From the IMG/VR virus record IMGVR_UViG_3300025093_000020: a stretch of 64,000 bases of DNA. One strand, written 5' to 3'. Under the pieces are notes generated by a model, which saw only the letters and a list, made by a program, of their open reading frames with translations, searched no databases and was not told the origin of the DNA. Below, one piece after another: positions 7,216-57,557 of this stretch. Made by a program: the position numbers and the translations under genes. How positions within the stretch are numbered: the first letter of the stretch is position 1; the number at the start of each line of letters is the position of its first letter. Source of the stretch: a virus.

Positions 7216-7695
7216 ATGACCGACTCGAAAGACCCGAGACCGCTGTCCAAGACGACAGCCAAGCCGGAAGCGGCTGCAGCACCGAAACCGGAGGTGGCAA
7301 AGCCCGCTGCTGAGCCCAAGGCCGCGCCCGAGAAGCCCGCTGCTCAACCCAAGGAGGCGCAGGGCACCCTTGATCTGGGTTTCAGCCTGGAAGGTCTGAA
7401 CATCCAGCAGCTCGCGCAGCTTCAGGCTGACGCGGCAGTTCGTTTTGCAGAGGCCAAAAAGGCAGCGCTGGTCGATGCGCGGCGGGCCGTCGAGAAACTG
7501 GCGTCCGACTGGGGGTTCAGCATGCTCGAACTGGGCTTCCAGCCGGTCAAGTCGAAGTCCAAGGCGCCGATCGGGGCACCGAAGTACCGGAACCCCGCCG
7601 ATCCCGCTCAGACCTGGACCGGCACCGGGCGCAAGCCGCAGTGGATCCTCGACGCGCTGGAGAAGGGCGTCGACATCGAGACCATGAAGATCTGA
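7216..7695 (+). CDS. H-NS family nucleoid-associated protein (159 aa)
   Basis: The C-terminal motif YRNPADPAQTWTGTGRKPQWI matches the H-NS DNA-binding signature (TWxGxGRxPxW). Upstream of it are a coiled-coil and a Pro/Ala/Lys-rich N-terminus. RBS AAGGAG at 7201. Confidence 0.75.
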   Translation: MTDSKDPRPLSKTTAKPEAAAAPKPEVAKPAAEPKAAPEKPAAQPKEAQGTLDLGFSLEGLNIQQLAQLQADAAVRFAEAKKAALVDARRAVEKLASDWGFSMLELGFQPVKSKSKAPIGAPKYRNPADPAQTWTGTGRKPQWILDALEKGVDIETMKI

Positions 7696-7865
7696 TGGCC
7701 GTTCAGGTTGTGCTGCCGGATGAACGGTTGGCAACCTGCTCCTGCGGGGTGCAAGTCAGATTCCGCCCCGCAGACATCGACCTCTTTCACAACACCACTG
7801 CCGGGGTGAAAGAGGTCGATGAGTTCGTAACGTGCCCCTGTTGCGGAAAGAAGATCTTCGTCTGA
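7695..7865 (+). CDS. small zinc-ribbon protein (56 aa)
   Basis: Cys pairs CSCG...CPCCG. ATGA overlap with the H-NS-like gene stop. Confidence 0.5.
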   Translation: MAVQVVLPDERLATCSCGVQVRFRPADIDLFHNTTAGVKEVDEFVTCPCCGKKIFV

Positions 7866-9223
7866 TGGCACACGCAACGAAAACTCCCCCTTCATCTGCC
7901 GACCGTTGGTTCTATTGCACGGCCTCAGTCCTTCTGATCCTGCAATTGATGCGTAATGGCGAATTAAAGGAGAGCGATCTTGAACGCGACGAGGGTGTCA
8001 CCGAGGATGAGGTGCTTGAATTCGGCGGTTATGATGACGTTGTATTGGGCAATTCTATCTCAGACTCTTTCTCCGCCGAAGGGACTGTGCTTCATGAAGT
8101 TCGGGCCAGTTGTCTAGAATTCAACCTTGATCCCATGAACTTTGTCGGATTGGAAATGAGTGCTGATGGGCATTCGTTTCTGATTGATGACGATAAGGCC
8201 GATCGATTGGTTGCAGGCATAGATTGGATCCGGGAGCACACACGCGCGCCATACGTGGAAACCCGGGTTGATCTATCCGAATGGCTGCCGGAACAGTTCG
8301 GCACCTGCGATACTTTCTGGCTGAAACCTGTTCGCGGCAAGCGTGATATTTTCGATCTGTACGTCTCCGATTATAAGAACGGCATCGGTAGACCTGTCGA
8401 TGCCGAAGGGAACAAACAGCTTCGGATCTACGCGCTTGGCGCCTGGGTTTTCCTCGGAAAGCCGAATATCCGAAAGATCATCATCAACATCGATCAGCCG
8501 CGCGTCGGCGGCATGAAGTATGACGAGTTTGATTTCCAAGAATTGCTTGAGTTCGGCGAAGAATTGAAGCGAATTTGGGAACGCATCGAAAGCGGAAACG
8601 TTGAATTCGTGCCTACCATCAAAGGTTGTCAGTTCTGCCCGGTGAGGAAGACTGACGCAGGCTGCGCCGCCTATAACCGATGGCTGTTGCTGATGTGCGG
8701 GACCGCCTTCCTTGATCCGTCAGAACCCTATCCCAAATTCAAAGACCCTGAGCAGATCACCGCCGCGCAGAGGTACTATATCGTGCGGCACGCGGCAGCG
8801 TTGAAGTCCTGGCTGGAGAAGCTGTATGAGGCCTCTCTGCGCGCTGCTATGGCGGGTAACCCCGACCCTGGGTCCAAGGCGATCGAGGGTAACGGTGGCA
8901 AGCGCTACTTCACCAATGAAGAGCGCGCACAGCGCATCATGAAACACGCTCTTGGGGATCAGGCATTCAAGCCCCGCGAGTTGATCGGTTTCACGGAGCT
9001 TGACCGGCTGATGAAGCCCGGTCGCAAGAAGGATGGATTTCCGCGGCACTATGCGCTGCTGGAAAAGCTGGCAGCTCGGCCAAAGGGGAAGCCCAAATTG
9101 GTGTCAGCGGATCACCCGAAACCTGCACTGGAAACGGTGTCTACGGATGATTTCGAGGATCTACCGGAAAAAGGATCAGTGCGCCGCGTCGAGATTTCGA
9201 CCGACGATTTCGCAGACCTTTGA
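7865..9223 (+). CDS. PD-(D/E)XK Cas4/RecB-like nuclease (DUF2800-like, 452 aa)
   Basis: The N-terminal Cys (WFYCTAS) plus the C-terminal CQFCPVRKTDAGC cluster is typical of Cas4-type Fe-S nucleases. A DYK motif is present. It has the canonical position upstream of the SSB-like and polymerase genes. TGATG coupling at the start. Confidence 0.65.
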   Translation: MAHATKTPPSSADRWFYCTASVLLILQLMRNGELKESDLERDEGVTEDEVLEFGGYDDVVLGNSISDSFSAEGTVLHEVRASCLEFNLDPMNFVGLEMSADGHSFLIDDDKADRLVAGIDWIREHTRAPYVETRVDLSEWLPEQFGTCDTFWLKPVRGKRDIFDLYVSDYKNGIGRPVDAEGNKQLRIYALGAWVFLGKPNIRKIIINIDQPRVGGMKYDEFDFQELLEFGEELKRIWERIESGNVEFVPTIKGCQFCPVRKTDAGCAAYNRWLLLMCGTAFLDPSEPYPKFKDPEQITAAQRYYIVRHAAALKSWLEKLYEASLRAAMAGNPDPGSKAIEGNGGKRYFTNEERAQRIMKHALGDQAFKPRELIGFTELDRLMKPGRKKDGFPRHYALLEKLAARPKGKPKLVSADHPKPALETVSTDDFEDLPEKGSVRRVEISTDDFADL

Positions 9224-9247: not shown

Positions 9248-9928
9248 ATGGGAAAACTGATGGAACGCGACAACACGGGTCGCACGACAATGCTCACCCG
9301 GGTGCGCGCGTCTTTCGCGGAATCGTTGCAGGAGAAAAAGGCGTCGAAGGCCGATCCGACGAAACTGTCTCACGCGGCGAACTTCATCATCGAACGGGAT
9401 AGCCCTGATTTCGAGAGCAACAAGGCAGCGGTTGTCGCCGCGCTCCAGAATACCTGCAAGGAAGCCAAGCGGTCGGAAAACTGGTGGAAACAGCTTTTTG
9501 ACGACGATCCCAAGCAGCTTGCCTTCCGCAAAGGGGAACGCTTCAAGGACAAGAACGGCGAGATCTACAAGGGTTATGAGAACAATCTGATTGTCGTCGG
9601 GAAAGGGCCGAAAGCCGGCGCCGAGCGGCCGAGCAAACTGCTTGATCGCTACAAGCGTCCCATCGAAGTGAATGACATCAATGATGTGATTTACAACGGC
9701 ACCATGTGCGACGTGGTGATCTCCTGGTACTATACCGACAAACACGGCCCCGCGCGCATTACCTGCTCGATTGAGGCCGTGCGGTCGTGGCAGGAGGGGG
9801 AACGCCTCGGCGGCGGCGGTATCTACGTCGATGAGGACGATTTCGATACCATTGAAGGCGACGACGATGGGTTCGACTCGCCTCCCAAAACCCAGACCTC
9901 CAGCAGCACCAGCCTCCTGGATTTCTGA
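9248..9928 (+). CDS. phage ssDNA-binding protein candidate (DUF2815-like, 226 aa)
   Basis: Synteny (nuclease, this gene, polymerase) and an acidic aromatic tail DEDDFDTIEGDDDGFD...SLLDF. RBS AGGAGAG. Confidence 0.5.
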   Translation: MGKLMERDNTGRTTMLTRVRASFAESLQEKKASKADPTKLSHAANFIIERDSPDFESNKAAVVAALQNTCKEAKRSENWWKQLFDDDPKQLAFRKGERFKDKNGEIYKGYENNLIVVGKGPKAGAERPSKLLDRYKRPIEVNDINDVIYNGTMCDVVISWYYTDKHGPARITCSIEAVRSWQEGERLGGGGIYVDEDDFDTIEGDDDGFDSPPKTQTSSSTSLLDF

Positions 9929-9980: not shown

Positions 9981-10148
9981 ATGTTCCGTTTCCTTTTGAT
10001 GATTTTCGGTCGGAAAAGAGTTTTCGAGAGGTTGTCTAGCAATACCAATCTCCCCTGCGAGGCGATCCAGTATAGCGATTCAATGGTCTGCGCTCGCTGC
10101 GGTTTGATCTGGGATATGAACGATCCTGATGCGCCTTGGTGTAAATGA
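9981..10148 (+). CDS. small Cys-rich protein (55 aa)
   Basis: ATG 9 nt after GGGAGA. Carries C...CARCG...C. Its end overlaps the polymerase start. Confidence 0.45.
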   Translation: MFRFLLMIFGRKRVFERLSSNTNLPCEAIQYSDSMVCARCGLIWDMNDPDAPWCK

Positions 10149-12181
10149 CTTCCGACATTTTCTTCGATATCGAATGCTTTCCGAATTTCTTCTTCGTCGG
10201 CATGAAGCGCCGCGAAGACGGAAAGAGGATTGGTTTCGAACTCAGCGAACGCCGAAATACTTTTGATCGTGATCGGATTCGGCGCCTTCTTTTGAAGACG
10301 CGCCACATTGGCTACCATTCCTTGACTTACGACTTACCAATGCTTTGGTATGCGCTTGACGAAAACGTGACCAACGCAATTCTCAAGGAAAAATCCAACG
10401 GGATCATTCAGGGGAATTTACGTTGGTGGGATGTTGACGATTACCTAGGTATCCGCGTCCCTTGGGATGTGCGAAATCGTCATATCGATCTCATCGAGCC
10501 TCAACCGAACGCCTTTGCGTCATTGAAGGCTCTGAATGGGCGGATGCACGGGGAACACCTGCAAGACCTACCTTACCAGCATGACACTGTGCTCACGGAC
10601 GCACAGATGGATGTTGTGGCGGAATACTGCCTTCATCGCGATCTCGATGCCACCGAAAACCTCTGGAATACCTTGGCTGAACCTATGGCGCTCCGCGAAG
10701 CGCTTGGCGCGCAGCATGGGCAGAATTTCATGTCCAAGTCGGACTCGCAGATTGGTGAAGCAATCGTCAAAAAGCGCGTCGAGGAAATTACCGGAACGAA
10801 GCCACAGCGCATCGAAACGAAACCTGGAACTACGTTCTTTTACCCAGTTCCGGAATGGATGAAGTTTGAGACGCCAGCTTTACAAAGCTTTCTTGAGGAA
10901 GTGCGCCAGGCTCAGTTTGTAATTGGCGCCGATGGAAAGGTTAAATCTCCAAAGGCGCTGAAAGACGTTCGAGTCAAACTCGGGAACATGGAATATAGCG
11001 TCGGTATTGGTGGACTCCATTCGACGGAAGCCCATCGGCCGGTGAAATCTGACCAAGACTGGCAACTTGTTGATGCTGATGTGGCGTCTCAGTATCCCTC
11101 GATTATCCTTATGCTTGGGCTTTTCCCAAAATCTCTAGGTGCTCCATTCCTTGAAGCCTATCGAGCGATTCGCGACGAACGGCTCAAAGCCAAGAAGCGC
11201 GTCAAGGAAATTAAGAAGGAACTGCCCGGCGTAAACGATCCAGACAGAATTGCGGAACTCAAGCGGGAGCTTGAGATTTGCACTGTCAAGGATAAGGGCG
11301 GTAAGATCCAGTTGAACGGTGTATATGGAAAGCTCGGCAGTAAGTACAGCATTCTCTACGCACCCCATCTGCTGATCGGTGTGACTTTGACAGGGCAATT
11401 AACCTTGCTCATGCTCATTGAGAAAGCATTGGCCGCAGGTATCGACGTGGTTTCCGGAAACACTGACGGCGTTCTTTTCCGTTGCCCGCGTGCAAAATAC
11501 GCCGGCTTGGACGGAGATCGTTTGATACCTTCCGCCTTGAAGAATGTGTGCGACTGGTGGGAAAATTTGACGGGCTTTGATCTCGAATTTGGGGAATATG
11601 ACGCCGTTTACAGTTCGTCGGTGAACACCTATTATGCGATTAAGCCAAATGGCGGGCATAAGCGCAAAGGGCCAATCGGTAATCCGTGGTCATCGCATCC
11701 TGACGATTTCGATCCGGTCCGTGGCCAGCTCACGAAAAACCCGCAGATGACGATATGTTCTGACGCAGCGCTTGCCAAGATTAAACACGGAACACCAGTT
11801 GAGGAAACGATCTACAATTGCCGAGACATGAAGCAGTTTATCACGGTGATTGCAGCGAGTTCAGGCGCCACTTGGCGCGAGGAATACCTTGGCCGAGTGG
11901 TTCGGTATTATTGGTGTAAAAACGGTGAGGCCGTATTGCGGGCCGAGGCAAACGACAGCGGCACTTTTGCCCGCGTGCAGAAGACAGAAGGCGCAGGCGC
12001 GTGTATGAAATTGCCGAACGAGATGCCAGACGACATCGACTATCAGCGTTACATTGATGAAGCTGAATCCATTCTTCGCGACGTTGGCTTCTATGGCGCC
12101 ATCATACCCAAGAGAAAGCCAATCCGCCTCACCAAAAAGAACAAGGTTCCCGTGTTATCAACGTGGATGCAGGTGGCGTGA
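10145..12181 (+). CDS. DNA polymerase with 3'-5' exonuclease, family-B-type motifs (678 aa)
   Basis: Exo I FFDIECFPN. Exo II-like SLTYDLPML. Pol motif A DADVASQYPSII (DxxSxYPS). Motif B KIQLNGVYGKLG (KxxxNxxYG). Motif C GNTDGV (xxTDx). Confidence 0.8.
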   Translation: MTSDIFFDIECFPNFFFVGMKRREDGKRIGFELSERRNTFDRDRIRRLLLKTRHIGYHSLTYDLPMLWYALDENVTNAILKEKSNGIIQGNLRWWDVDDYLGIRVPWDVRNRHIDLIEPQPNAFASLKALNGRMHGEHLQDLPYQHDTVLTDAQMDVVAEYCLHRDLDATENLWNTLAEPMALREALGAQHGQNFMSKSDSQIGEAIVKKRVEEITGTKPQRIETKPGTTFFYPVPEWMKFETPALQSFLEEVRQAQFVIGADGKVKSPKALKDVRVKLGNMEYSVGIGGLHSTEAHRPVKSDQDWQLVDADVASQYPSIILMLGLFPKSLGAPFLEAYRAIRDERLKAKKRVKEIKKELPGVNDPDRIAELKRELEICTVKDKGGKIQLNGVYGKLGSKYSILYAPHLLIGVTLTGQLTLLMLIEKALAAGIDVVSGNTDGVLFRCPRAKYAGLDGDRLIPSALKNVCDWWENLTGFDLEFGEYDAVYSSSVNTYYAIKPNGGHKRKGPIGNPWSSHPDDFDPVRGQLTKNPQMTICSDAALAKIKHGTPVEETIYNCRDMKQFITVIAASSGATWREEYLGRVVRYYWCKNGEAVLRAEANDSGTFARVQKTEGAGACMKLPNEMPDDIDYQRYIDEAESILRDVGFYGAIIPKRKPIRLTKKNKVPVLSTWMQVA

Positions 12182-19578: not shown

Positions 19579-20378
19579 AGCGTGCTGATGGGAAGACCCG
19601 GATTACAGCCGAACGAATTCGTGCCGCCATGGCAAAGCGTTGGGCTGATCCCGAGTGGGCGATCATGTGGGAAGTCGGTGAAGGCACCGGAGCCGCCAGC
19701 GGCCGCTATGCTGACGCTGTGATGATGTCGCTTTGGCCGTCGCGCGGACTGGAACTCCATGGCGTTGAAATCAAGGTGAGCCGATCTGACTGGAGGCGCG
19801 AAGCAGCTGACCCCAGTAAGGCCGAAGCGATTGCGAAGTATTGTGACCGTTGGTGGATCCACACACCTCCTGGAATCGTGGATGATCTGTCCGACCTTCC
19901 GCCGGCGTGGGGTTTGCGTGAATTCGACGGCAAGAACTGGAACACGCGGCGAGAGGCCGAGAAGACCGAAGCGGAGCAGGTCACTCGCAGGTTTCTAGCC
20001 GCGATGTTGCGGCGTGCCGATGGGACGATGCGAGCATTGGCTGCTGAGGCTGCGAGCGATGGAATGGCGGCCGTGGTGGTGGAAGAAGAGAAGCTGCGCG
20101 CTGAATATGCTAAGCGGGTCGAAGATGCTGTGAAGCGCAAGACCTCCGAATTAGATGAGGTTCGGGCCAACCTCAAAGCCTTCGAATCCGGTTTCGGCAT
20201 CTCAGCCGCCCACTATGCTGACTTTGGTCGCATTGGCAAAGCGGCACGGGCCTTGGCGGATCTCGACAGCAAAGGATGGCCACCGCTTGCTGATCGCTTG
20301 CGCCGTGCCGCCAATGAAATCGACGCTTTGAGCGAATGCCGGTTTTCCCAAACTGATCTGACGGAGTTGTTGCAATGA
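19575..20378 (+). CDS. MmcB-like PD-(D/E)XK protein with coiled-coil C-terminus (267 aa)
   Basis: The YADAVMM...LHGVEIKVSRSDW (D...ExK) block is typical of the MmcB family. ATGA coupling at the start. Confidence 0.55.
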   Translation: MKRADGKTRITAERIRAAMAKRWADPEWAIMWEVGEGTGAASGRYADAVMMSLWPSRGLELHGVEIKVSRSDWRREAADPSKAEAIAKYCDRWWIHTPPGIVDDLSDLPPAWGLREFDGKNWNTRREAEKTEAEQVTRRFLAAMLRRADGTMRALAAEAASDGMAAVVVEEEKLRAEYAKRVEDAVKRKTSELDEVRANLKAFESGFGISAAHYADFGRIGKAARALADLDSKGWPPLADRLRRAANEIDALSECRFSQTDLTELLQ

Positions 20379-21846: not shown

Positions 21847-23103
21847 GTGTCCCAGTCAGACCCCTTGTTTCCCACCCCGATGACGGTAAATCTCACGGTA
21901 GACGCAAATTTATACCGTGAGCCGCCCATGAGCCTTACCGATGCCGCCTGCCGTGCGGCCAAGCCCGCCGAGAAACCCCGCAAGCTGAGCGACAGCGGCG
22001 GGCTCTATCTCTTCGTCAGCCCCAGCGGCACGAAGACCTGGCGCCTGGACTATGCCTTCCAGGGCAAGCGCAAGACAGCATCCCTCGGCCGATACCCAGG
22101 TGTGAAGCTGGTGGAAGCCCGTGAGGAACGCGACCGCATGAAGGCGGAAGTCGCCGCCGGCCGTGACCCTATGCAACGTTATAACATAACATTTGAGAAG
22201 GTGGCGCGAGACTGGTTCGCTGCAAACCGCTCCAAGTGGAAGTCATCCTATTCGGAGCGCTTCTGGCGCCGGATCGAGCAGGACATTTTGACCAGTCTTG
22301 GTGACCGGGTGGTTAGCGAGGTCCAGCCACAGGAGATCCTGAAGCTGTTGCGGGAGATCGAGGAACGGGATGCTATCTACACGGCCAAGCGCATCTGCCA
22401 GATGGTCAGCACCATCTATCGCTTTGCGATCTCAGAGGGGCATGCTTCCAGCAACCCGGCTGAGAACCTGATGAGCGCGCTGAAGCCACTGCCGAAGCGC
22501 GAGCACCGGGCGGCCCTGGCTGAGAGCGATCTGCCTGAGTTCTTTCGCCGCCTGCGCGCCTATGACGGCGATGAGACGACAAAGCTTGGCCTCGCGATCG
22601 TGATGCACACCTTCGTGCGGACGAACGAGATCCGCTATGCCACCTGGTCAGAGATCGACGGTGACGTGTGGCGCATCGAGGGGGATCGGATGAAGATGGG
22701 CAAGACGCACCTGATCCCCCTAAGCCGCCAGGTGCAGGAACTGCTGGCGCAACTGCGGGAGCTGACCGGCCACGCGCCGTGGCTGCTTCCGGGCCGCGAT
22801 AGCAATCGTAAACCGGTCTCCGAAAACACCTTGCTTTATGCGCTGCGCAACATGGGGTATCATCGAACAGCAACCGTCCATGGTTTCCGGGGAACTGCGT
22901 CAACGATCCTGAACGAAAGCGGAAAGTGGAATTCAGACTGGATCGAGCGGCAGCTTGCGCACGTTCCCAAAGACCAAGTGCGATCAGCATACAATGCTGC
23001 GCAATGGATGGAGCAACGGCGTGAAATGATGCAGTGGTATAGCGACCTACTTGAAAGAAATGCAAAAGAGGATAAATTGAGCTTCAATAGCTTGTTGATG
23101 TGA
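21847..23103 (+). CDS. int: Tyrosine recombinase, P4-type phage integrase (418 aa)
   Basis: N-terminal DUF4102-like GLYLFVSPSGTKTWRLDY. Catalytic HGFRGTAST (HxxR) and LAHVPKDQVRSAYN (catalytic Tyr). Confidence 0.9.
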   Translation: MSQSDPLFPTPMTVNLTVDANLYREPPMSLTDAACRAAKPAEKPRKLSDSGGLYLFVSPSGTKTWRLDYAFQGKRKTASLGRYPGVKLVEAREERDRMKAEVAAGRDPMQRYNITFEKVARDWFAANRSKWKSSYSERFWRRIEQDILTSLGDRVVSEVQPQEILKLLREIEERDAIYTAKRICQMVSTIYRFAISEGHASSNPAENLMSALKPLPKREHRAALAESDLPEFFRRLRAYDGDETTKLGLAIVMHTFVRTNEIRYATWSEIDGDVWRIEGDRMKMGKTHLIPLSRQVQELLAQLRELTGHAPWLLPGRDSNRKPVSENTLLYALRNMGYHRTATVHGFRGTASTILNESGKWNSDWIERQLAHVPKDQVRSAYNAAQWMEQRREMMQWYSDLLERNAKEDKLSFNSLLM

Positions 23104-23617: not shown

Positions 23618-23687
23618 CGGAGGTGCTTCTGCGCCCGTGATACCGCTTTTCCCAACCTGCTGTGGCAGGCCCGGCGAAGCACCTCCG
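23618..23687. repeat. 12-bp perfect inverted repeat CGGAGGTGCTTC / GAAGCACCTCCG with a 46-nt spacer
   Basis: Read directly. The spacer contains a second small hairpin, CCTGC-tgtg-GCAGG (23656-23669). It starts 7 nt after the stop at 23611. Confidence 0.85.
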
Positions 23688-23768
23688 AAGGTCGACGCGG
23701 TACGAACTTCTTCCAGACCGTCTCGCGGTCGAGCGGCAGCAGCCCTTTACAACGTCGCGTCCAACCAG

Positions 23769-23815
23769 AATCACGTCTAGTGTGTTTTCTGTTGAGTGTC
23801 ACGCGAAACGTGATA
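23769..23815. promoter_or_regulatory. Two operator-like dyads upstream of alpA
   Basis: TCACGT-CTA-GTGTGT at 23771-23785 and TCACGC-GAA-ACGTGA at 23799-23813, which ends 35 nt before the ATG at 23848. Confidence 0.5.
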
Positions 23816-23847
23816 GACCTGATCGGGACGCACAGGAACCGATCACC

Positions 23848-24036
23848 ATGGCTGAACTGACAAACGACCGATTTTTGCGCCTGAAACAAGTGGTTGAGAT
23901 CACGAGTCTCTCCAAGAGCGAAATTTACCGGCAGGTCAACGATGGCCGGTTTCCTAAGCAGCAGCGCCGATCGCACAAGGTGGCGGTGTGGCGGCAAAGC
24001 GAGGTCGAGGCTTGGATGCGAGACACCAATGCCTGA
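23848..24036 (+). CDS. alpA: AlpA-family HTH regulator / excisionase-like (62 aa)
   Basis: RFLRLKQVVEITSLSKSEIYRQVNDGRFPKQ...WRQSEVEAWM matches the AlpA/MerR-like excisionase signature. Confidence 0.8.
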   Translation: MAELTNDRFLRLKQVVEITSLSKSEIYRQVNDGRFPKQQRRSHKVAVWRQSEVEAWMRDTNA

Positions 24037-24778
24037 CTTCAATGACCTCTTGGGCGATGAGCCTCCGAAGAAGCCGTCGAAGTCGAAGCGCGCCCGCGGG
24101 CGCCCGTCGCGCGAGGCAATGCTTGAGCGCGACACCGAAGAGTTGGCTGCAGAGCAGGCGAGACTGGGCCTCACCGATAACAAGACGCCGCATTACAGCG
24201 AGTTCCGCAAGCCGGTCGGCATCACATTCTTGGCCGCCGTCATGGGCCGCCAGCCAAAGCAGATCGAGAAGCGCCTCGAAAAGTGCCCGGTTCATTCCTG
24301 GCACCTGGTCTCTGGCAAGCAGAAGCCGCTGTACGAGTTCATGGACGCCATGTCCTATCTGGTGCCGCCGCGGGGCAGCATCGAAGACTGGTTCGCCCAG
24401 CAGAACGCCGCCAGCTTGCCCCCCTACGTCAACAAGATGTGGTGGGACTCAGCGGCGCAGCGCAACCGGGTGATGCTCGATTCCAACGATCTTTGGCACA
24501 CGGATGATGTGCTGGTGCTGCTCGGTCGCGCCCACATGGCGATCAAGGAAGAATGTAAGATGTGGGTCGAGGAATTGCCTGAAAAGGAGATTCTGACCGA
24601 CAAACAATACGCCGCTCTTATCGACGCGCAGAACCGTCTGGTTCTGAACCTACGCAAGATCTTCATCGAGATGCCGCGTGAAACCCTGTCCATGACTGCT
24701 CACATTCAGAGCGAACTGGACGCCAGCGGCAGGGTGCCGAATGACGCAGATCGACCGAACGCTGACGACGAAGAGTGA
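24029..24778 (+). CDS. putative terminase small subunit (249 aa)
   Basis: It lies immediately upstream of, and overlaps, the gpA-type large terminase. Basic N-terminus KKPSKSKRARGRPSR. The call rests on position. Confidence 0.5.
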   Translation: MPDFNDLLGDEPPKKPSKSKRARGRPSREAMLERDTEELAAEQARLGLTDNKTPHYSEFRKPVGITFLAAVMGRQPKQIEKRLEKCPVHSWHLVSGKQKPLYEFMDAMSYLVPPRGSIEDWFAQQNAASLPPYVNKMWWDSAAQRNRVMLDSNDLWHTDDVLVLLGRAHMAIKEECKMWVEELPEKEILTDKQYAALIDAQNRLVLNLRKIFIEMPRETLSMTAHIQSELDASGRVPNDADRPNADDEE

Positions 24779-26978
24779 GGCGCTGCGGACAATCCGTCCG
24801 CTGACAATCAAGGAACTGGCGGCGCGTGCAAAGTACCGCACGCTTGAGGATGTTTTTGCCGCGGCCTTCGTTGAGATGAAGCCCGCGGGGCGGATGACCG
24901 TCACCGAGGCCGCAGAAGACTTTACGCGCATTGGCAGCGCTGGCGGCAGCAAGCCTTGGCTGCTTTCCACGACTCCATACCTGAAGCTGCCGCAGGACGT
25001 TCTGACCTCGCTTGAGTTTCAGGGAATGATCTTTGTCGGTCCCGCGCGGACAGGCAAAACGGTCATGGGCCTGAATTGGATCAGCCACACCGTCAAGACC
25101 GATCCCGCCGACATGCTCTATGTTCACATGGACCGGGAAAATGCGCGCAAATGGTCAAAGGGTGATCTTGATCGATACCTGATGGCCTCCACGGCAATTC
25201 GCTCTGAGCAGATCACTGCGCGGCAATACGACAACACCTTCGACAAGACCTTCAAGAGCGGGATGCGTTTCCTGCTGACCTATCCAACGGCGTCGAACCT
25301 TTCCGGGATCACGGTCGGCCGGGTGATGTTCATCGATTACGACCGGAGCCCGAGCAACGACAACGTGGACGGCGAAGGTAACGCATATGACCTTGGGTCG
25401 ATGCGGACCACGACTTTCCGTCGCTTCGCAATGACGGCTGCGGAATCATCGCCCAACCCCAACAAGGAGATCACCGATCCACGCTGGATGCCTTCTTCAC
25501 CCCACGAGGCGCCGCCGATCAAGGGTATCTTCGAACTCTACAACCGCGGCGACCGGCGGCGCTGGCAGTGGTGCTGCCCTGAATGTGACAACTGGTTCGA
25601 GCCGGATTTCAAGCTGCTCGATTGGAATAACTTGGAAGACCCGATGGAGGCCAAAGAGGCCACCACGATGATCTGTCCCCACAACGGTTGCATTCTGTAC
25701 CCGTGGCAGAAGGACGAGATGAACCACTATGGCCACTGGATCCGGGAAGGGGAATACATCGAACCCGGCCGCGATGGTGAGACCAAAGCCCGCCCTGGAA
25801 TGAAGGTGACGCGCTCCACCATCGCTTCTTTCTGGCTGAAAGGGCCGGCTGCTGCTTACCAAGGCTGGGGGAACCTGGTCGAGAAATATCTGCGGGCACT
25901 CAAGACTTACAACGACACCTCCGACGATGGTCCGCTCCGAAAAACAATCACGACCGATCAGGGGAATTACTATATCCCCTATTCGCGGTTGTCCGAGATT
26001 GCCCCGGAAACCCTGAAAGCCAAAGCTGAGGACTGGGGATCGACTCCCGAAAATCCAACCGTTCCCGAAGGTGTGCGCTTCCTTGTCGCAACTATCGACG
26101 TGCAGAAATCGGCATTTGATGTTCAGGTGAACGGCTTCACGGCTACGGGGGATCTTGTCGTCGTGGACATGTTCAAGATCCGCGTTTCTTTGCGCGAGAA
26201 CAGCCGAGGGGAACGCCTGCCGATCGACCCAGCCGCATATGGGGAAGATTGGGCCAGGATCGAGGAACTGGTAATGAACCAGACCTACGAACTGGGTGAC
26301 GGCTCCGGGCGGCGCATGCGGATCCGGGCGACGGCTTGTGACTCCGGTGGTCGGGAAGGTGTGACCGGGCACGCCTATAATTACTGGCGAACCTTGAAAC
26401 GACGCAAGGATGGCTCCCACCGCCGACTGATCCTCATCAAAGGGGACACCGTGAAATCGGTGACCAATACCCCTGAAGCGCAAACTCGGCATCCAGACGC
26501 ATCGCAGAAGGATCAATTCGCGGTGGCCAAGGGTGACGTGCCAGTGGTCTTCTTGAACTCGAACAAGCTCAAGGACCGCGTGAGTCTTCTCATGCACCGG
26601 CGCGTTTCTGATGAGGGTGAGACAGGCGGTTTGATCCGTTACCCTGATTGGGCTGAGAACTGGTTCTATTCCCAGCTCACCGCCGAGGTGCGCACGGAAA
26701 AGGGTTGGGAGAAGACCGGCAAACGGCGAAACGAAGCCTTTGACTTGAGCTATTACGCCCTAGGCGCAGTGCTGCGCGGCCGGGAACGGAACGTGCCTTT
26801 GATGCTGTTCGAATGGGATCGCATCCGATGGGATGACCCGCCGTTTTGGGCCGAGGAATGGGACGACAACGAATTGGTGTTCAAGCCTACCGGCGCAGCG
26901 GAACCGGAGCCCGAGTTCAAATCGAAGAAGACTGCGGGTCGACCAACGATGGCGGAACTTGCTGAACGACTCGGGTAG
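24741..26978 (+). CDS. terL: Terminase large subunit, lambda gpA type (745 aa)
   Basis: Walker A FVGPARTGKT. Its size and the following gpW-like and portal genes are as in lambda. Confidence 0.85.
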   Translation: MTQIDRTLTTKSEALRTIRPLTIKELAARAKYRTLEDVFAAAFVEMKPAGRMTVTEAAEDFTRIGSAGGSKPWLLSTTPYLKLPQDVLTSLEFQGMIFVGPARTGKTVMGLNWISHTVKTDPADMLYVHMDRENARKWSKGDLDRYLMASTAIRSEQITARQYDNTFDKTFKSGMRFLLTYPTASNLSGITVGRVMFIDYDRSPSNDNVDGEGNAYDLGSMRTTTFRRFAMTAAESSPNPNKEITDPRWMPSSPHEAPPIKGIFELYNRGDRRRWQWCCPECDNWFEPDFKLLDWNNLEDPMEAKEATTMICPHNGCILYPWQKDEMNHYGHWIREGEYIEPGRDGETKARPGMKVTRSTIASFWLKGPAAAYQGWGNLVEKYLRALKTYNDTSDDGPLRKTITTDQGNYYIPYSRLSEIAPETLKAKAEDWGSTPENPTVPEGVRFLVATIDVQKSAFDVQVNGFTATGDLVVVDMFKIRVSLRENSRGERLPIDPAAYGEDWARIEELVMNQTYELGDGSGRRMRIRATACDSGGREGVTGHAYNYWRTLKRRKDGSHRRLILIKGDTVKSVTNTPEAQTRHPDASQKDQFAVAKGDVPVVFLNSNKLKDRVSLLMHRRVSDEGETGGLIRYPDWAENWFYSQLTAEVRTEKGWEKTGKRRNEAFDLSYYALGAVLRGRERNVPLMLFEWDRIRWDDPPFWAEEWDDNELVFKPTGAAEPEPEFKSKKTAGRPTMAELAERLG

Positions 26979-27053
26979 TTTCACATAAAAAGTGAAATAC
27001 AAGAACAACTTGCAAGTTTAACGTGACTCGGGGTATGGCTAGGGCAACGTGAC
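26979..27053. promoter_or_regulatory. Operator cluster in the terL-gpW intergenic region
   Basis: Palindrome TTTCAC-ATAAAAA-GTGAAA at 26979-26997. Two direct AACGTGAC half-sites at 27020-27027 and 27046-27053, 26 bp apart. Confidence 0.5.
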
Positions 27054-27067
27054 AAACAAGGTGTCCA

Positions 27068-27298
27068 ATGCCCGTTCTTCCCTCTGCTGCAGATCGGTTG
27101 CTTGAAGCGCGGATTGCGCTTCACGCCCTGCTGACCGGGCAACAGGAAGCCGAGGTGCGTGACAGCAATGGCGAAAGCGTGCGGTTCACCTCCGCCAATG
27201 CCTCGCGCCTGCGCGAGTACATCGCCCAGCTTGAAGCTGAGGTTGCCGGCCTGAACCCGATCAAACAACGGGCTCCGTTGAGGCCCATCTGGTCATGA
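27068..27298 (+). CDS. Head-tail joining protein, lambda gpW-like (76 aa)
   Basis: ARIALHALLTGQQ...VRFTSANASRLREYIAQLEAEV aligns with lambda gpW ARAALHDLMTGKR...VEFTATSVSDLKKYIAELE. Confidence 0.8.
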   Translation: MPVLPSAADRLLEARIALHALLTGQQEAEVRDSNGESVRFTSANASRLREYIAQLEAEVAGLNPIKQRAPLRPIWS

Positions 27299-28962
27299 GC
27301 GCGTCGTTCAACGATCTGCTGAGCACTGAAGTCTCCCAGGTGCCCGCGCAGGCGCGTCCGCCCGGCGTCTCCGCGTCGGGCGGCGTGGCCTATGACGGCG
27401 CCAGTCAGATCGATCAGCTCGCAACCTGGTACACGCCGATCCGATCTGCAGACGCAGACATCCTGCCCAACAAGGCTGTGATCGACGGTCGCGCCCGCGA
27501 CATGACGAACAACGACGCCTACGTCGCCGGCGGCGCCACGCTGCACAAAGACGCGATGGTTGGCGCCCAATATCGCCTGAATGCGAAGCCCATGACCAAG
27601 GTGCTCTGGGGCGCGGATGACGAAACCTGGGAAGAGGAATTTCAGGAGGAAGTCGAGACGAAGTTCACGTTGTGGGCCGAGTCCGATCTTCACTGGTCCG
27701 ACTCCCAGCGGCGTCTGAACTTCACGGATCAGATCCGGCTCGCCGTGGGGGTGCACGTCACTGGTGGCGAATTCCTCGGCATTGCCGACTGGCAGGACGA
27801 TGGCCGCGCTTATGCTTCGTCCCTCTTGGCCATCGATGCCGACCGCCTCAGCACGCCGAATGACCGCGTGCTCGACATGAATCTCCGGATCCGGGATGGC
27901 GTGGAGTTCAATCGCCGCGGACAGCCGATCGTCTATCACATCCGAAATGAACACCCGAGCGACTATTACAGCGGCTTCAACCACATGCTCGAAGTGTTCA
28001 AGTGGACGCGGGTGCGCCGGGAAACCCGTTGGGGCCGCCAGAACGTGCTGCATATCTACGACATGCTGCGGCCGGATCAGTCCCGCGGCATTGCAGCCAT
28101 GGTCACGGCGCTCACTGAGATGCGCATGCTCAAGCATTTCCGGAAGACGGAACTACAGCGCGCAGTGATTGCCGCGACCTATGCGGCGTCGATCGAAACC
28201 GACCTGCCAACCGATGCCGCTTATGCAATGGGCACGATGGACAGCGCAGGCGAAAACTATTCGGAATTCGCGCAGCAATACATGGCGATGATGAGCGGGT
28301 ATTTCGAAAACGCCCGCACGATCCGCATGGATGGCGCAAAGATCCCCGTCTTTGTCCCGAACACCAAGCTGAGAATCCAGAACCCGGGTGCCGCATCGCC
28401 GGCCGGTGATAAATTCGAGGCGTCGATGCTGCGTTATATCGCGGCAAGCCTCGGGGTTTCCTACGAGCAGCTTTCCCGCGATTACAGCAACACCAACTAT
28501 TCGTCGGCACGCGCTTCCATTGGCGAAGCACTCCGCGGCATGCTGCCCAAGAAACGAATGGTTGCCGATCGCACCGCCAATTTCATCTATCGGCTCTGGC
28601 TGGAAGAGGCGATCAATTACAATCGGCTCGAAACGCTGAAGCGGCCCAATGTTCCCTCCTTCTACGAAGGATTGAACACAGAGGCCTATGTGAATGCGGA
28701 ATGGGTTGGCGCGGGGCAGGGGCAGATTGATCCCCTGAAAGAAACTCAGGCGGCAATGCTGAAAGTGCAGAACGGCTTCTCGACACTGGAGCATGAAACC
28801 GCCCGGATGAACGGTGGTGATTGGCGCTCTGTGTCTCGCCAACGCGCCCGCGAGCAGCGCTTGCTGAGGGATCAGTACAAGGTCGGTTCGGTTTACGACA
28901 ACCAGAACAGCGATATGACCAATGCGCTCTCCGGCAACAAAGGGGAAGCGGATGCCACTTGA
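27295..28962 (+). CDS. Portal protein, lambda gpB family (555 aa)
   Basis: Position after gpW, its size, and ATGA coupling. The N-terminus is MSASFNDLLS. Confidence 0.8.
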   Translation: MSASFNDLLSTEVSQVPAQARPPGVSASGGVAYDGASQIDQLATWYTPIRSADADILPNKAVIDGRARDMTNNDAYVAGGATLHKDAMVGAQYRLNAKPMTKVLWGADDETWEEEFQEEVETKFTLWAESDLHWSDSQRRLNFTDQIRLAVGVHVTGGEFLGIADWQDDGRAYASSLLAIDADRLSTPNDRVLDMNLRIRDGVEFNRRGQPIVYHIRNEHPSDYYSGFNHMLEVFKWTRVRRETRWGRQNVLHIYDMLRPDQSRGIAAMVTALTEMRMLKHFRKTELQRAVIAATYAASIETDLPTDAAYAMGTMDSAGENYSEFAQQYMAMMSGYFENARTIRMDGAKIPVFVPNTKLRIQNPGAASPAGDKFEASMLRYIAASLGVSYEQLSRDYSNTNYSSARASIGEALRGMLPKKRMVADRTANFIYRLWLEEAINYNRLETLKRPNVPSFYEGLNTEAYVNAEWVGAGQGQIDPLKETQAAMLKVQNGFSTLEHETARMNGGDWRSVSRQRAREQRLLRDQYKVGSVYDNQNSDMTNALSGNKGEADAT

Positions 28963-30292
28963 TTTCAACCCCGTGCTGATGTCGCGATTTCAGGACCAGG
29001 TCGCGCTTGTTTCCGAAAGCCGCGTTGGCTGGTTCGAAGGCTGCCTCGTTGGCCTCAACGAGCGCATGGATGAGATCGAGAACGCGGACATGCAGGTTTC
29101 TGCATCCGATGATTTCTGGTCTTTCGAGCCGGATTCCTTTCTCGCATATCTGCGACCCTACAAGGTCAAGAATGGCATTCTGCAGATTCCTGTCAGAGGC
29201 GTTCTGCTCAACAATTTCCCCTATGCTTACGGATCCTGGGCGACCGGCTACGAATACATCCGTGAGGCAATCAAACGCGGACTTGATGATTCAGAGGTGA
29301 TGGGTATTGTGCTTGTCATCGATTCCGGTGGCGGCATGGTCTCGGGAAACTGGGATCTGGTGGACTTCATTTCTGAAGGTCGGGATACCAAGCCGATCCG
29401 TGCCATTGCTGCTGAGCACGCCTATTCCGCGGCCTACAATATCGCCGCAGCGACGAGTCATATTACCGTCGCACGGACAGGTGGCGTCGGCTCAATCGGC
29501 GTCGTGATTGTTCACATGGAAATGTCCAAGCTGCTCGATGAGCGCGGCATTACTGTCAACATCATCCGCTCCAAGCCCGGAAAGATGGAGGGCAATTCGT
29601 TCGAGGCGCTTTCCGAAGACGCTCGCAAGCGATTCCAAGAAGGCGTGGATGAATCTCACAAAGAATTCGTCGCCATGGTGGCGAAGAATCGAGGCCTTTC
29701 GGAAGAGGCAGTGGACGCGACAAACGCCCTGACCTTTCGCGCCTCGCAGGCGATCGACAACGGACTTGCTGACCAAATTGGCAACTTTGACGACGCAATC
29801 ACGGCCTTCGTGGCCAGTTTCAACCACAAGGAGGATGAATCCATGGCCAATGTCTCCGAGGCCAAACATACCGACGAGCAGCTTTCGACGGCTGTTTCTG
29901 ATGCGACAAAAGCTGCGAAGGCGGAAGGCGTGAGCGAAGGTGCTTCGGCCGAGCGCACGCGGATCACCTCGATCCTCGGTTCGCCCGAAGCCAAGACCCG
30001 CCCGGCCGGCGCCCTGATGATGGTCAACCTCGGTATCGCGGCTGATGCAGCGGTGGCTGAACTGGCCAAGCTGCCGGAAGAAAAGCCTGCAGCCCAAACC
30101 CCCGCCACGCCCGAACCGGCAGCGGGCGCCGGGGCGCCGGAGGGCATGCTGAAATCGGCCATGGCGGGCGAGGGCGCTCACGGCGTGCAGCCCGATGGCA
30201 GCGACGGCGAGAAGCAAAAGAAATCCCAGGCAGACGAGGACCGCGAGCTGATCGCGGCCTACGGCCTCTCTGGCTTCAAGGGCAAGGAGTGA
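28952..30292 (+). CDS. S49 (SppA/ClpP-fold) head maturation protease with scaffold-like C-terminus, lambda gpC-like (446 aa)
   Basis: GIVLVIDSGGGMVSG and AAEHAYSAAY blocks of S49 peptidases. Ala/Glu/Lys-rich C-terminal half. RBS AGGGGAAG precedes the ATG at 28952. Confidence 0.8.
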   Translation: MPLDFNPVLMSRFQDQVALVSESRVGWFEGCLVGLNERMDEIENADMQVSASDDFWSFEPDSFLAYLRPYKVKNGILQIPVRGVLLNNFPYAYGSWATGYEYIREAIKRGLDDSEVMGIVLVIDSGGGMVSGNWDLVDFISEGRDTKPIRAIAAEHAYSAAYNIAAATSHITVARTGGVGSIGVVIVHMEMSKLLDERGITVNIIRSKPGKMEGNSFEALSEDARKRFQEGVDESHKEFVAMVAKNRGLSEEAVDATNALTFRASQAIDNGLADQIGNFDDAITAFVASFNHKEDESMANVSEAKHTDEQLSTAVSDATKAAKAEGVSEGASAERTRITSILGSPEAKTRPAGALMMVNLGIAADAAVAELAKLPEEKPAAQTPATPEPAAGAGAPEGMLKSAMAGEGAHGVQPDGSDGEKQKKSQADEDRELIAAYGLSGFKGKE

Positions 30293-30296: not shown

Positions 30297-31058
30297 ATGG
30301 CAACCGTTACCCCTCCGTATGCTGACCCGGGCCGGGCGGCGTTCGAAGAACTCGACACCTATGTGATGAACTTCCTGCTGGCAGGATCGCATCCTGAACT
30401 GAAACCGGCGGTCGGTCTGCCGATGCCGAACAGCGCATCCTATGCGCAATTTTCCGTTCTGGGTCTGAACGCCGCCGGGAAACTGGTGATGGCGACCGAA
30501 GGTTCTGACGCGGCTGCCGCAACCGGGACGCTGACTTTCAGCGGCACGGGCACGGCAAACGACACCGTGACGATCGGCGGCACTGTCTACACGCTCGTGG
30601 CGGCCGCTGACGCGGAATACGAGGTGACCATCGGCGGCTCGGCGGCTGCGACCGCTGCCAACTTCGCCGCAGTGGTGAACGGCACCGATCCCAACGAGAC
30701 GCCGGCCAACCCGGATGTTTCGGCCTCGGTTGCAAGCGCCGTGGTGACGCTGACCGCGCGCCAAGCGGGTGCTGTGGGCAACTCGATCACGACCACCGAG
30801 TCTGGCACCGGCACCTCCTTCGGTGCGGCTGTCATGAGCGGCGGTGCTGATCAAGGCGGCGTGCAGGCCAGCTATGTCCTCGCACATGCCACCGCACTGG
30901 GCGCCAGCGGCACCACCAACGGGCCGTGCTGGTACTCGGGCTGCTTCAACATCGACGCCCTGGTGTGGGACGCCTCGTTCGACACCGACGCCAAGAAGCT
31001 CGCCGCATTCCGCGGTGCGCCGACCCCGACCACCATCCTCACCGCCAAGCGCGTCTGA
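30297..31058 (+). CDS. Head decoration protein, gpD-like with a large internal insertion (253 aa)
   Basis: The C-terminus WYSGCFNIDALVWDASFDTDAKKLAAFRG resembles lambda gpD FYKSGTFRYEDVLWPE...KRTAFAG. The central Gly/Thr/Ala-rich segment is absent from the 110-aa gpD. Confidence 0.65.
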   Translation: MATVTPPYADPGRAAFEELDTYVMNFLLAGSHPELKPAVGLPMPNSASYAQFSVLGLNAAGKLVMATEGSDAAAATGTLTFSGTGTANDTVTIGGTVYTLVAAADAEYEVTIGGSAAATAANFAAVVNGTDPNETPANPDVSASVASAVVTLTARQAGAVGNSITTTESGTGTSFGAAVMSGGADQGGVQASYVLAHATALGASGTTNGPCWYSGCFNIDALVWDASFDTDAKKLAAFRGAPTPTTILTAKRV

Positions 31059-56818: not shown

Positions 56819-57013
56819 TCACACCAAAAGCGCCGTGAAATTCGTCGTCTTCACCGGGTATTGGTGTTCAGTCGTAAACTTGCGTTCAGCGGATGCCATT
56901 GCTGAAATGGTGTTTTCGCGCATGTCACCAATGGAAAAGAAAGCGCCATTGCGCGCTTCACAGATCCATGTGTTTGGCGCCACCAATCGAACAACGAACA
57001 GCGACGGCTTCAT
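56819..57013 (-). CDS. small early protein (64 aa) ending NFTALLV
   Basis: ORF track. ATGA coupling. Confidence 0.5.
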   Translation of the reverse strand: MKPSLFVVRLVAPNTWICEARNGAFFSIGDMRENTISAMASAERKFTTEHQYPVKTTNFTALLV

Positions 57014-57276
57014 ACCAGCAACTCCGTGAAACTGGCTTTCTCAGGTTCAGAGATTTCGCCCAGGCAGGAAGTCAGGGCTTCTGCCAAGGTGGGCTTCCAC
57101 TTTCCGCGCTTCCATTCCAACTGCATTTCGTTGGATTTGATCGACACCTGCCACATGCCGCGCTCTGTCTCGCGTGTCGGTTCATCGCGCATGGTGTAAA
57201 CCGGCGACGAGATCGACAGCTTTTCAATTCCCTGCGTCAGCAGGAAATCTTCAATCTGCTCGACTGTGAGGTTCAT
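57010..57276 (-). CDS. small early protein (88 aa) ending SFTELLV
   Basis: ORF track. Paralogous to the next gene: KWKPTLAEAL against KWAATLDEAF, and the same tail. Confidence 0.55.
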   Translation of the reverse strand: MNLTVEQIEDFLLTQGIEKLSISSPVYTMRDEPTRETERGMWQVSIKSNEMQLEWKRGKWKPTLAEALTSCLGEISEPEKASFTELLV

Positions 57277-57557
57277 ACCAGGAGATCGGTGAAGCTGGGC
57301 TTCTGGGCCGCCTCCGCGGGCAGATCGTCAAAGTCGGTAGCGCGCACCTTGGCAGGTGCAGCCTTCAGCGCGGCCTCAAACGCTTCGTCCAGTGTAGCCG
57401 CCCATTTGTGGACGGGGATGCACTCGCACAGCGCGCCCGGGCTGCTGTAGTAGATCGACGCCAACGCCTTCCCATTGGACCCAACGCCAAACGTGATCGA
57501 CGTGATTTCGTGCTCTGCAATGATCGAGGCCAATGGGGCGAGCGTCAGCATGCTCAC
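57273..57557 (-). CDS. small early protein (94 aa, GTG start) ending SFTDLLV
   Basis: ORF track. GTGA overlap. It also carries TDFDDLPAE. Confidence 0.55.
   Translation of the reverse strand: MSMLTLAPLASIIAEHEITSITFGVGSNGKALASIYYSSPGALCECIPVHKWAATLDEAFEAALKAAPAKVRATDFDDLPAEAAQKPSFTDLLV

Follow-up and report, generated by a model that had tools for sequence, protein, structure and literature searches.

Introduction

Acidic tails on phage helicases and on the proteins with which phages bind single-stranded DNA (SSBs) are a classical means of keeping a replisome together. In phage T7 at least two replisome proteins, gp2.5 and gp4, carry the same kind of acidic, hydrophobic-ended tail, which binds the gp5 polymerase-thioredoxin complex, and the gp2.5 tail mediates protein contacts in that it touches both polymerase and helicase (PMC10359462). 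Here we describe a peptide tag of comparable character in a 64,000-nt stretch of the IMG/VR virus record IMGVR_UViG_3300025093_000020 (hereafter the window), where it stands at the N-termini of the small terminase (TerS) and the portal and recurs on proteins of replication, DNA modification and integration. The SSB of the window is of the same structural type as gp2.5 (DUF2815/Enc34; PMC5686142). Compared with T7, the handle is found here on at least ten proteins, including TerS, the portal, the integrase, a methylase and, in relatives, the excisionase; it may be N-terminal or internal; its core is Φ-xx-LL-G (Φ, hydrophobic), where T7 has a terminal aromatic residue; and its receptor is putative.

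The tip of T4 gp32 serves as a hub on which proteins of replication and recombination meet. Its A-domain ends in ..ADDTDLDDLLNDL-COOH (PDB 8gme_A), which includes DLDDLLNDL and is near-identical to the tag consensus D-[LF]-x-D-L-L. In T4, however, one SSB tip serves many partner pockets, whereas here many proteins show a tip-like peptide, implying competition for one receptor. Disordered acidic-hydrophobic peptides likewise organise DNA enzymes around SSB in the case of the E. coli SSB-Ct (DFDDDIPF) and of the RPA70N-binding motifs (ATRIP and the RPA-binding motifs of PrimPol), and RPA70N has the same polarity, in that many clients bear the peptide and an OB-fold cleft receives it. SSB-Ct differs in its need for the free carboxylate of a C-terminal Phe, a group that tags at an N-terminus or inside a protein do not have, and, unlike RPA70N, a phage OB fold as receptor is here a candidate only.

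Two further systems offer points of comparison. In sliding-clamp motifs (bacterial QL[SD]LF; the gp45-binding tails of T4 gp43, gp33 and gp55) one short terminal motif leads many DNA-transaction proteins to one hub, and the T4 clamp-binding tails link to late transcription and packaging (PMC3012670). The lambda gpB leader and the capsid-targeting peptides (the T4 capsid-targeting sequence, the HK97 protease C-terminus and encapsulin cargo peptides) direct proteins to one assembly, and the former (MKTPTIPTLLGPDG in lambda) extends the N-terminus of a lambda-family portal by a short stretch, as the tag does. The leaders of lambda and phage 21 are nevertheless not acidic and do not co-vary with other protein termini, whereas the tag of the window is carried by replisome proteins and is absent from the protease/scaffold. 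A handle on TerS, portal, integrase, excisionase and methylases with shared genome-specific variants (‘dialects’) is apparently new: we found no description in the literature of a motif or handle shared by portal, terminase, integrase, excisionase or methylases, nor of genome dialects.

An N-terminal tag shared by TerS and the portal

The nearest cultured relatives of the window are temperate Rhodobacter capsulatus phages of the RcD cluster, e.g. RcSalem (Casjensviridae, ~68 kb; PMC8601537), the core proteins of which are mostly 50-70% identical to those of the window, with gene order kept. Relatives were sampled around homologues of the portal, with flanks of up to 10 kb, as nine prophage loci from genomes of Alphaproteobacteria and 55 IMG/VR contigs; those bearing the tag are alphaproteobacterial phages of Casjensviridae-like type. 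Genes of the window and of these loci were called crudely (longest open reading frames (ORFs), a filter on third-position GC content (GC3) and inferred start codons).

A nine-column position-specific scoring matrix (PSSM) trained on relatives was scanned over 79 such calls of the window, with matches counted at ≥9 bits. Five N-terminal and six C-terminal matches were obtained, against 0.46 and 0.11 in shuffled proteins; none of 500 shuffles reached 11 terminal matches, and terminal copies are ~20 times commoner than chance. The consensus is D-D-[F/L/I]-[D/S/E]-[D/E/A]-L-L-G-[P/D/G/S], located in relatives 1-8 residues past the start codon and followed by a P/S/G/A-rich linker and, in TerS, by an AT-hook-like RGRP. 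More generally, an acidic run precedes Φ-x-[D/E/A/S]-L-[L/I/M/F]-[G/S], with hydrophobic residues at i, i+3 and i+4, a spacing that suggests one face of a short amphipathic helix. Since codons differ among the tag copies of the window, the conserved object is the peptide and not a DNA site. A DNA-level repeat at gene boundaries is likewise ruled out, as across relatives identical residues use identical codons at a rate of 0.50 within genomes against 0.43 between them.

The identity of TerS is supported by its position upstream of and overlapping the start of the large terminase (TerL), by a predicted DNA-binding domain with putative oligomerisation helices, and by annotated homologues. It is 69% identical to a Rhodobacter RcD phage protein annotated ‘terminase small subunit’ and matches the PHROG 141 family of the same name at 7.5e-19, while its DUF1441 match of 29 bits lies under the Pfam cut-off of 35.1. 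The protein consists of the N-terminal tag, an AT-hook-like KRARGRPSR (24086-24112), a winged-helix core and long helices; in 73 of 96 homologues a GRP-type motif falls among the first 50 residues. In the AlphaFold2 (AF2) model the core is confident, with helices 65-72 and 76-85, a β-hairpin at 90-102 and the long helices, which we read as a winged helix, although Foldseek returned only weak likeness to winged helices (terminase, Nu1 and Xis DNA-binding domains). Because residues 1-20 are left as low-confidence coil (predicted local confidence, pLDDT, ~50), the model suggests that the tag is a free arm and is not packed on its own domain. Residues 20-28 of the adjacent TerL (24798-24824) form a conserved tag-like stretch of their own, P-x-T-I-x-E-L-[A/M/I], which reads PLTIKELAA in the window, PATIAELMD in RcSalem and PTIDELISS in L172. 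This stretch has no acidic flank or Gly, and could be a degenerate tag or a TerS-binding helix.

The first-pass annotation had placed the N-terminal motif on three proteins, namely TerS, the portal and the S49 protease/scaffold. The first two begin as it described, but the protease, judged by its own sequence and that of its homologues, is not a member of the tag family. It reads MPLDFNPVLM only from an internal ATG at 28952 of the ORF 28922-30292, a start that has a Shine-Dalgarno-like AAGGGGAAG stretch upstream and agrees in position with the starts in relatives. None of 46 distinct protease relatives reaches 10 bits, the counting threshold used in relatives throughout, and their median is -3.3 bits. 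They begin M-x-NPILARFQDQPALI, i.e. M-x-N-P-[IL]-L-A-R-F-Q-D-Q-P-A-L-I, which continues straight into the conserved body, and the window protease resembles the tag merely through an extra PLDF. A segment comparable to this protease element, AFNEPLMLEPAY, lies ~15 residues into lambda gpC.

Conservation and genome dialects

The proposal of the first-pass annotation depended on the motif being present in orthologous portals and terminases, where it is indeed kept: the portal N-terminus carries it in 45 of 52 distinct relatives and the TerS N-terminus in 35 of 45. In a 5.8-billion-protein collection, 58 of 96 distinct TerS homologues reach the threshold, and most of the others are degenerate (e.g. 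MSDPDLLIDD, MDLNDLLND).

Tags within one genome resemble each other. TerS and portal tags agree at 5.2 of 9 positions when drawn from the same genome and at 3.6 of 9 when drawn from different ones (z ~9; 0 of 20000 permutations), and integrase tails set beside portal tags agree at 4.06 of 7 positions within a genome and at 2.62 of 7 between genomes (0 of 20000 permutations, for the comparison with portal or TerS tags), where related genomes in the permutation samples are non-independent and the effective sample is below 30. At least eight distinct dialects were recognised, each recurring on two to five unrelated proteins. Paired variants of TerS and portal include FEAML/FEEML, FSDIFDD/FDHLFDD, RSLDDLLG/RTLDDLIG, FDELIGV/FDDLIGV, DEFEALM/DEFEALL and VDLSDLMG/VDLSDLIG, as well as DPLxxLLG. 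The integrase C-terminal tag, found in ~16 of 25 distinct relatives, is in the dialect of its genome, and excisionase and C5-methylase tails also keep to genome dialects.

The match is close in the primase-helicase, whose interdomain linker in relatives holds one or two copies that repeat, with hardly a letter changed, a tag borne by TerS or portal on that contig: FDLTDLLGDT against the portal FDLTDLLGP in L163, EDFDDILGPS against the TerS SDFDDILGPS in L171, and NDLSDLLG twice against SDLSDLLG and LDLSDLLG in L158. Because codon identity is barely higher within genomes than between them, recent gene conversion fails to explain the dialect matching, which is best attributed to selection on the peptide.

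Tag copies on replication, modification and integration proteins

In the window a six-frame search found the F-N-x-L-L core at the ends of the integrase and an N6/N4 DNA methylase, and a looser [ST]-F-[TK]-[DEA]-L-L-[VS]* at the ends of four small early ORFs (Table 1; * denotes the stop codon). The first-pass annotation had joined these C-terminal tails to the N-terminal peptides of TerS and the portal, and the conservation results agree that all belong to one motif family. The primase-helicase and the Cas4-like nuclease carry further copies. In RcSalem the tag is carried by TerS, portal, integrase, both methylases, the exonuclease, three small proteins and a DsbA-like protein; the RcSalem orthologue of the N6/N4 methylase ends ..TNDELLV*. 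Among relatives more widely, the tag also ends C5 methylases, exonuclease (DSLEDLLA*, NDIDDLLGL*), Cas4-like nucleases (DEFDDL*) and, in ~8 genomes (~8 of 30 excisionases), AlpA/excisionase (e.g. EEFEALLSA*, VDLTDLLV*), and it begins the SNF2 helicase (MDFDFDLSDLLADE).

Table 1. Positions of the tag copies, the proteins that carry them and the main genes of the window.
Feature	Positions	Strand	Remarks
PrimPol-VapE primase-helicase, 848 aa	3031-5577	-	Replication module
Primase-helicase internal tags DNLNDILGA and VSFDDLLGP	4504-4578	-	Latter at 4504-4530; linker between PriCT-2 and VapE-helicase domains
DUF2800 Cas4-like nuclease	7832-9223	+	Replication module; Pfam
Nuclease tags DDFEDLPEK and terminal ..STDDFADL*	9146-9220	+	Relatives end DEFDDL(D)*
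DUF2815/Enc34-type (T7 gp2.5-type) SSB	9248-9928	+	Replication module; Pfam
SSB acidic tail ..DEDDFDTIEGDDDGFD..TSLLDF*	9830-9925	+	
DNA polymerase, family-A-like	10145-12181		Replication module
Ribonucleotide reductase, SNF2 helicase, C5 methylase			Further genes of the replication module
267-aa protein, C-terminal tag QTDLTELLQ*	20349-20375	+	PHROG 14517
Integrase	21847-23103	+	
Integrase C-terminal tag KLSFNSLLM*	23074-23100	+	
AlpA-type excisionase	23662-24036		
TerS	24029-24778	+	DUF1441 / PHROG 141; start MPDFNDLLG; lambda-type head module
TerS N-terminal tag PDFNDLLG	24032-24055	+	PSSM 21.6 bits
TerL (gpA-type)	24741-26978		Lambda-type head module
gpW			Lambda-type head module
Portal, lambda family (PF05136)	27295-28962	+	Start MSASFNDLLS; solved relatives are portal chain 8vhx_D and lambda gpB 8k38; lambda-type head module
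Portal N-terminal tag SASFNDLLS	27298-27324	+	PSSM 16.1 bits; then P/S/G/A-rich linker
S49 protease/scaffold	28952-30292		Lambda-type head module
Prohead protease N-terminus PLDFNPVLMSRFQDQ	28955-28999	+	Separate conserved element, no tag; PSSM -0.6 bits
Decoration protein	30297-31058	+	Head module
gpE-type capsid protein			Head module
N6/N4 DNA methylase	52933-54354		
Methylase C-terminal tag SMSFNELLL*	52936-52962	-	
64-aa early ORF, C-terminal tag TTNFTALLV*	56822-56848	-	
88-aa early ORF, C-terminal tag KASFTELLV*	57013-57039	-	RcSalem homologue gp55 ends ..DDDEGLLV*
94-aa early ORF, C-terminal tag KPSFTDLLV* and upstream TDFDDLPAE	57276-57338	-	
69-aa coiled-coil ORF, C-terminal tag ATSFKDLLS*	61919-61945	-	

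SSB tails and other branches of the family

The tail of the SSB contains a motif, DDFDD[LMI]E, that is near-invariant across 64 homologues, and the extreme tips of these proteins read SLLDF*, DDFDL*, DDLLDF*, DDDLLG* or four tandem xDLLG repeats. The last arrangement is seen in P0042 (..ADDLLGGG..GDLLGGGG..ADLLGG..TDLLGL*), and others, among them P0039, L196 and L193, end DDDLLG* or DDDLL*. In the AF2 model of the window SSB the core is confident and the linkers are of low confidence, with an island of intermediate confidence on EDDFDTIEGDD. The tags share with an SSB tip an acidic run and a short hydrophobic motif within a disordered segment. They do not occupy the extreme C-terminus of an OB-fold single-stranded DNA-binding protein: TerS and portal tags are N-terminal, those of the primase-helicase are internal, and neither TerS nor the portal is an SSB. 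By sequence the TerS and portal tags are SSB-tip-like in their presumed working but are not SSB tails in the strict sense.

Phages of other branches use other peptides. Salmonella phage Chi (L179) has no DLLG tags and a portal without a tag, and a shared acidic tail ..[DE]n-E-V* ends its primase (..PFDDEDEV*), Cas4-like nuclease (..WDDEDDDDEV*), SSB (..WDEDEDWEDEV*) and, C-terminally, TerS (..DEVDDDEV*); the small proteins gp44 and gp58 likewise have a D/E-rich ending, ..(D/E)V*, and that of the helicase is ..VWDDEE*. In Stenotrophomonas phage Suzuki (L180) the SSB ends ..DEDDIGL* and TerS ..DSIGLDEDEDE*, and the portal has no tag. Pseudomonas phage PspYZU01 has a portal MQAPDELEDLIG (DELEDLIG), a helicase ending ..DDLEDLI* and an SSB ending ..DEDGLI*, with a TerS that lacks the tag. 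Constant across these branches is that each phage has an SSB-like tail of its own which its replisome proteins have in common with one or more packaging proteins; the packaging protein and the terminus vary.

A putative docking handle and its rivals

A docking signal shared by TerS, portal, integrase, methylase and early proteins is a sensible reading of these observations. Because a tethered peptide has been selected to match across unrelated proteins of one genome, one co-evolving binding site would be the best account, and because of the membership of the tagged set and the likeness of the handle to an SSB tip, the replisome is the partner to which the data point. We tentatively favour, at a little under an even chance, the reading that the tag is a docking handle for one common partner, probably the replisome core, and that packaging is thereby coupled to replication; the single partner, its identity and the functional consequence are what we infer from these sequences.

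On this docking reading, the tagged proteins would each bind the same site on one phage-specific partner, with the handle displayed on disordered tethers, be they N-termini (TerS, portal), C-termini (integrase, methylase, small early proteins) or an interdomain linker (primase-helicase). Shared docking would gather the proteins of replication, DNA modification, integration/excision and packaging initiation in one place, and would bring TerS and portal to replicating phage DNA. One candidate receptor is the family-A-like DNA polymerase, for which the tails of T7 gp4 and gp2.5 on gp5-thioredoxin are a precedent; no DNA polymerase ending in the tag was found in any genome examined. The other candidate is the tail-binding groove of the DUF2815 SSB, suggested by the crystal contacts of Enc34 and by analogy with RPA70N. 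Crystals of Enc34 ORF6, other DUF2815 proteins and T7 gp2.5 show a molecule's acidic tail seated in its neighbour's groove (PMC5686142). For the link to packaging there is a precedent in T4, where genetic evidence exists for an interaction between gp17 and gp32, and gp55 is involved in terminase loading (PMC3012670).

Several points weigh against this proposal. It leaves the docking of a portal on a replisome component without explanation. The lambda record annotates gpB residues 1-22 as a removed leader, and the gpB model begins at residue 24, within the wing domain (PMC10721106), facts that point to a procapsid-internal role for the leader. The AF2 island on the SSB tail is modest (pLDDT ~55-61) with contacts not visible, and the terminal tips of SSBs track genome dialect loosely. 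Of the 19 portal contigs that reach 60 kb, nine gave an SSB match in a pattern scan that is insensitive, and tag-bearing prophages such as L001 (Mesorhizobium) were covered by no more than 10 kb on each side. A single-sequence scan with the polymerase gave no matches, and alignment-based scans, within the same limits, found the polymerase or SSB on part of the portal contigs.

Alternatively, the tag could be a capsid-targeting, scaffold-docking or protease-recognition peptide, as the first-pass annotation had proposed: tagged proteins would enter the procapsid near the portal, perhaps to be co-injected, and the S49 protease would remove the tag. Peptides that direct proteins to the capsid are found at N- or C-termini in T4, HK97 and encapsulins, and packaged methylases or anti-restriction proteins are known, e.g. 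P1 Dar. The lambda-family leader is, besides being annotated as removed, missing from virion maps (PMC10721106), and of all tag copies the portal's alone sits where that leader sits. No virion proteomics of RcD phages was found in the literature. We nonetheless regard this explanation as highly implausible. The protease/scaffold itself lacks the tag, and the presence of the tag on the primase-helicase linker, SNF2 helicase, exonuclease, Cas4-like nuclease, excisionase and SSB fits all three mechanisms poorly; TerS, an 848-aa primase-helicase with an internal tag, SSB, helicases and excisionase are implausible as capsid cargo. Moreover, the portals of Chi and Suzuki are untagged while their replisome proteins and TerS share a tail, and the TerS of PspYZU01 is untagged, whereas an element of portal-scaffold or TerS-TerL contact should not be dispensable in this way. 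The same untagged proteins bear on a packaging-motor hub, in which the tag would bind the gpA-type TerL. TerS and portal would use it to put the motor together, while SSB, nucleases, helicases, methylases and Int/Xis would be recruited to or compete at the same site during the handover to packaging. TerS and portal are the two proteins obliged to contact TerL, for which no acidic tag was found in the genomes examined, and T4 gp17 is genetically linked to gp32 (PMC3012670). Lambda-type Nu1 C-termini also share a stylistically similar [LI]-P-x-[LM]-L-[DS]-E-Y motif. These C-termini reportedly bind gpA, on genetic evidence from Frackman, Feiss and co-workers. Such a hub nevertheless appears improbable: the untagged TerS of PspYZU01 must still bind TerL, the Nu1 C-terminus and portal N-terminus do not co-vary in lambda-type coliphages, and the lambda leader, given its removal and the wing-domain position of the first modelled residue, is unlikely to reach TerL outside the capsid. 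The tag-like P-x-T-I-x-E-L stretch near the TerL N-terminus, too, suggests a client rather than a receptor.

The partner could instead be supplied by the host, if an AAA+ protease or adaptor (Lon, ClpXP), a chaperone or a nucleoid protein recognised the tag and destabilised or tethered its bearers, with dialects tracking hosts. Tagged proteins are functionally heterogeneous, are products of early and late genes, and expose the tag at their termini. Mycobacteriophage integrases are said to carry C-terminal degradation tags (Broussard et al. 2013), and Lon acts on DNA-binding proteins including the CcrM methylase. We consider this reading rather improbable as well, because, although the tags end in LL[GVSM] and degrons of the Lon LarA/sul20 and ClpX ssrA types have hydrophobic or non-polar end residues, the flanks of the tags are strongly acidic and some copies are internal; the alphaproteobacterial Lon degron of LarA is hydrophobic and His-ended and its recognition is abolished by Asp (PMC10665427), so that a LarA-type degron is disfavoured. 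A site within the primase-helicase linker and a tag on the essential, abundant SSB would also be odd for a degron, and dialects differ among phages of related hosts while near-alike dialects occur in unrelated ones (Sphingopyxis FDDLIG, Pseudomonas LEDLIG). Finally, there may be no common partner at all, the tags being generic acidic, DNA-mimicking tails that fold back on the DNA-binding surface of their own protein, as in T7 gp2.5 and T4 gp32, and that look alike through composition and occasional copying of tail segments. Where the function of a tagged protein can be recognised it is nearly always one that involves DNA binding, the tail of an SSB is known to fill the DNA-binding cleft of the SSB itself (PMC5686142, PMC10359462), and tags are often gained or lost, as the counts for integrase and excisionase indicate. 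Auto-inhibition, however, needs neither a fixed Φ-xx-LL-G nor idiosyncratic variants common to unrelated proteins (FEAML/FEEML/FLDML; DPLxxLLG; FDHLFDD/FSDIFDD), codons give no sign of recent copying, and the TerS tag is not modelled as packed on its own domain, so that we hold this account to be very unlikely.

Certain specific candidates were also set aside. AlpA/excisionase is ruled out as the receptor, being itself tagged in some genomes, and so are two other window proteins, with a BRCT domain (58680-59900) and an H-NS-like domain (7216-7695), as neither has a detectable homologue in the tag-bearing RcSalem. A β-clamp motif (QL[SD]LF or QLxLxL) does not fit, as the PSSM has no Gln at position 1 and its hydrophobic positions are i, i+3 and i+4, not 2, 4, 5 (or 2, 4, 6); dialect variation is, furthermore, not what the conserved pocket of a host clamp would lead one to expect. 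The proteins screened, which covered part of the window genes, included none recognisable as a clamp. Lambda itself contains likenesses to the tag in the gpB leader (IPTLLG), the Nu1 C-terminus (IPGLLS) and the Nu3 C-terminus (VNDLLN). These were treated as chance, and lambda was not used as a model, because phage 21, Gifsy-1, PhiR12_2, PhiR5_1 and F10 show no co-variation between Nu1 C-terminus and portal N-terminus; a scan of viral contigs with lambda gpB returned near-identical copies only. The C-terminal [LI]-P-x-[LM]-L-[DS]-E-Y is present in the Nu1-type TerS of lambda, PhiR12_2, PhiR5_1 and F10 (among L010, L151 and L154-L156) and differs in phage 21. It is presumably the gpA-binding helix, and does not co-vary with the portal leader.

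A broader form of the docking reading is possible, if rather doubtful. Casjensviridae-like phages would then use a genome-wide peptide ‘address code’, an SSB-tip-like handle in lineage dialects (DLxDLLG in alphaproteobacterial phages, LEDLI in the Pseudomonas phage, D/E-rich ..EV in Chi, DIGL in Suzuki), that wires the proteins of replication, modification, excision and packaging to one co-evolving hub as one connected factory. If so, dialect mismatch could hinder the exchange of modules between phages. Should the partner be a replisome component, the tag would offer a testable physical link between replication and packaging initiation in cos siphophages, a link for which the evidence has until now been mostly T4 genetics. 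Put in practical terms, these short, transferable and predicted-exposed tags could recruit cargo to the phage factory, dialect matching may help to assign metagenomic fragments to one phage, and the tags are relevant to start-codon choice and annotation of the genes concerned.

Genome organisation and further features

The phage character of the window runs nearly end to end, the replication and head modules of Table 1 being completed by tail genes and by early genes in a leftward block. TARA-ocean contigs (L181-L183) have near-identical genes for the SSB (86% identical); there the element is integrated adjoining a CheB/CheR-PAS fusion gene, and its boundary lies just past the counterpart of the gene for the 267-aa protein with a tag. 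After this gene the window has instead a PAPS-reductase-like gene and the integrase, an arrangement like that of an element that has been excised or circularised.

The H-NS-like protein (159 aa; 7216-7695, + strand) lies in the replication module and has an H-NS C-terminal DNA-binding domain (E 1.2e-14); it is also found in L181-L183. The BRCT protein (406 aa; - strand) has a single such domain (Pfam E 1.7e-13), with stretches rich in Cys towards its N-terminus and hydrophobic segments towards its C-terminus; BRCT domains outside ligases are unusual among phage proteins. The head-decoration homologue has 253 residues against 143 in RcSalem, its extra N-terminal half being rich in Ala, Thr and Gly. 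At the left edge, positions 1-190 consist of a ~190-bp run in which a 9-bp unit, CTGGTGCTG, is repeated, a few of the copies being irregular; the run may extend past the window edge, and one frame reads (VLL)n.

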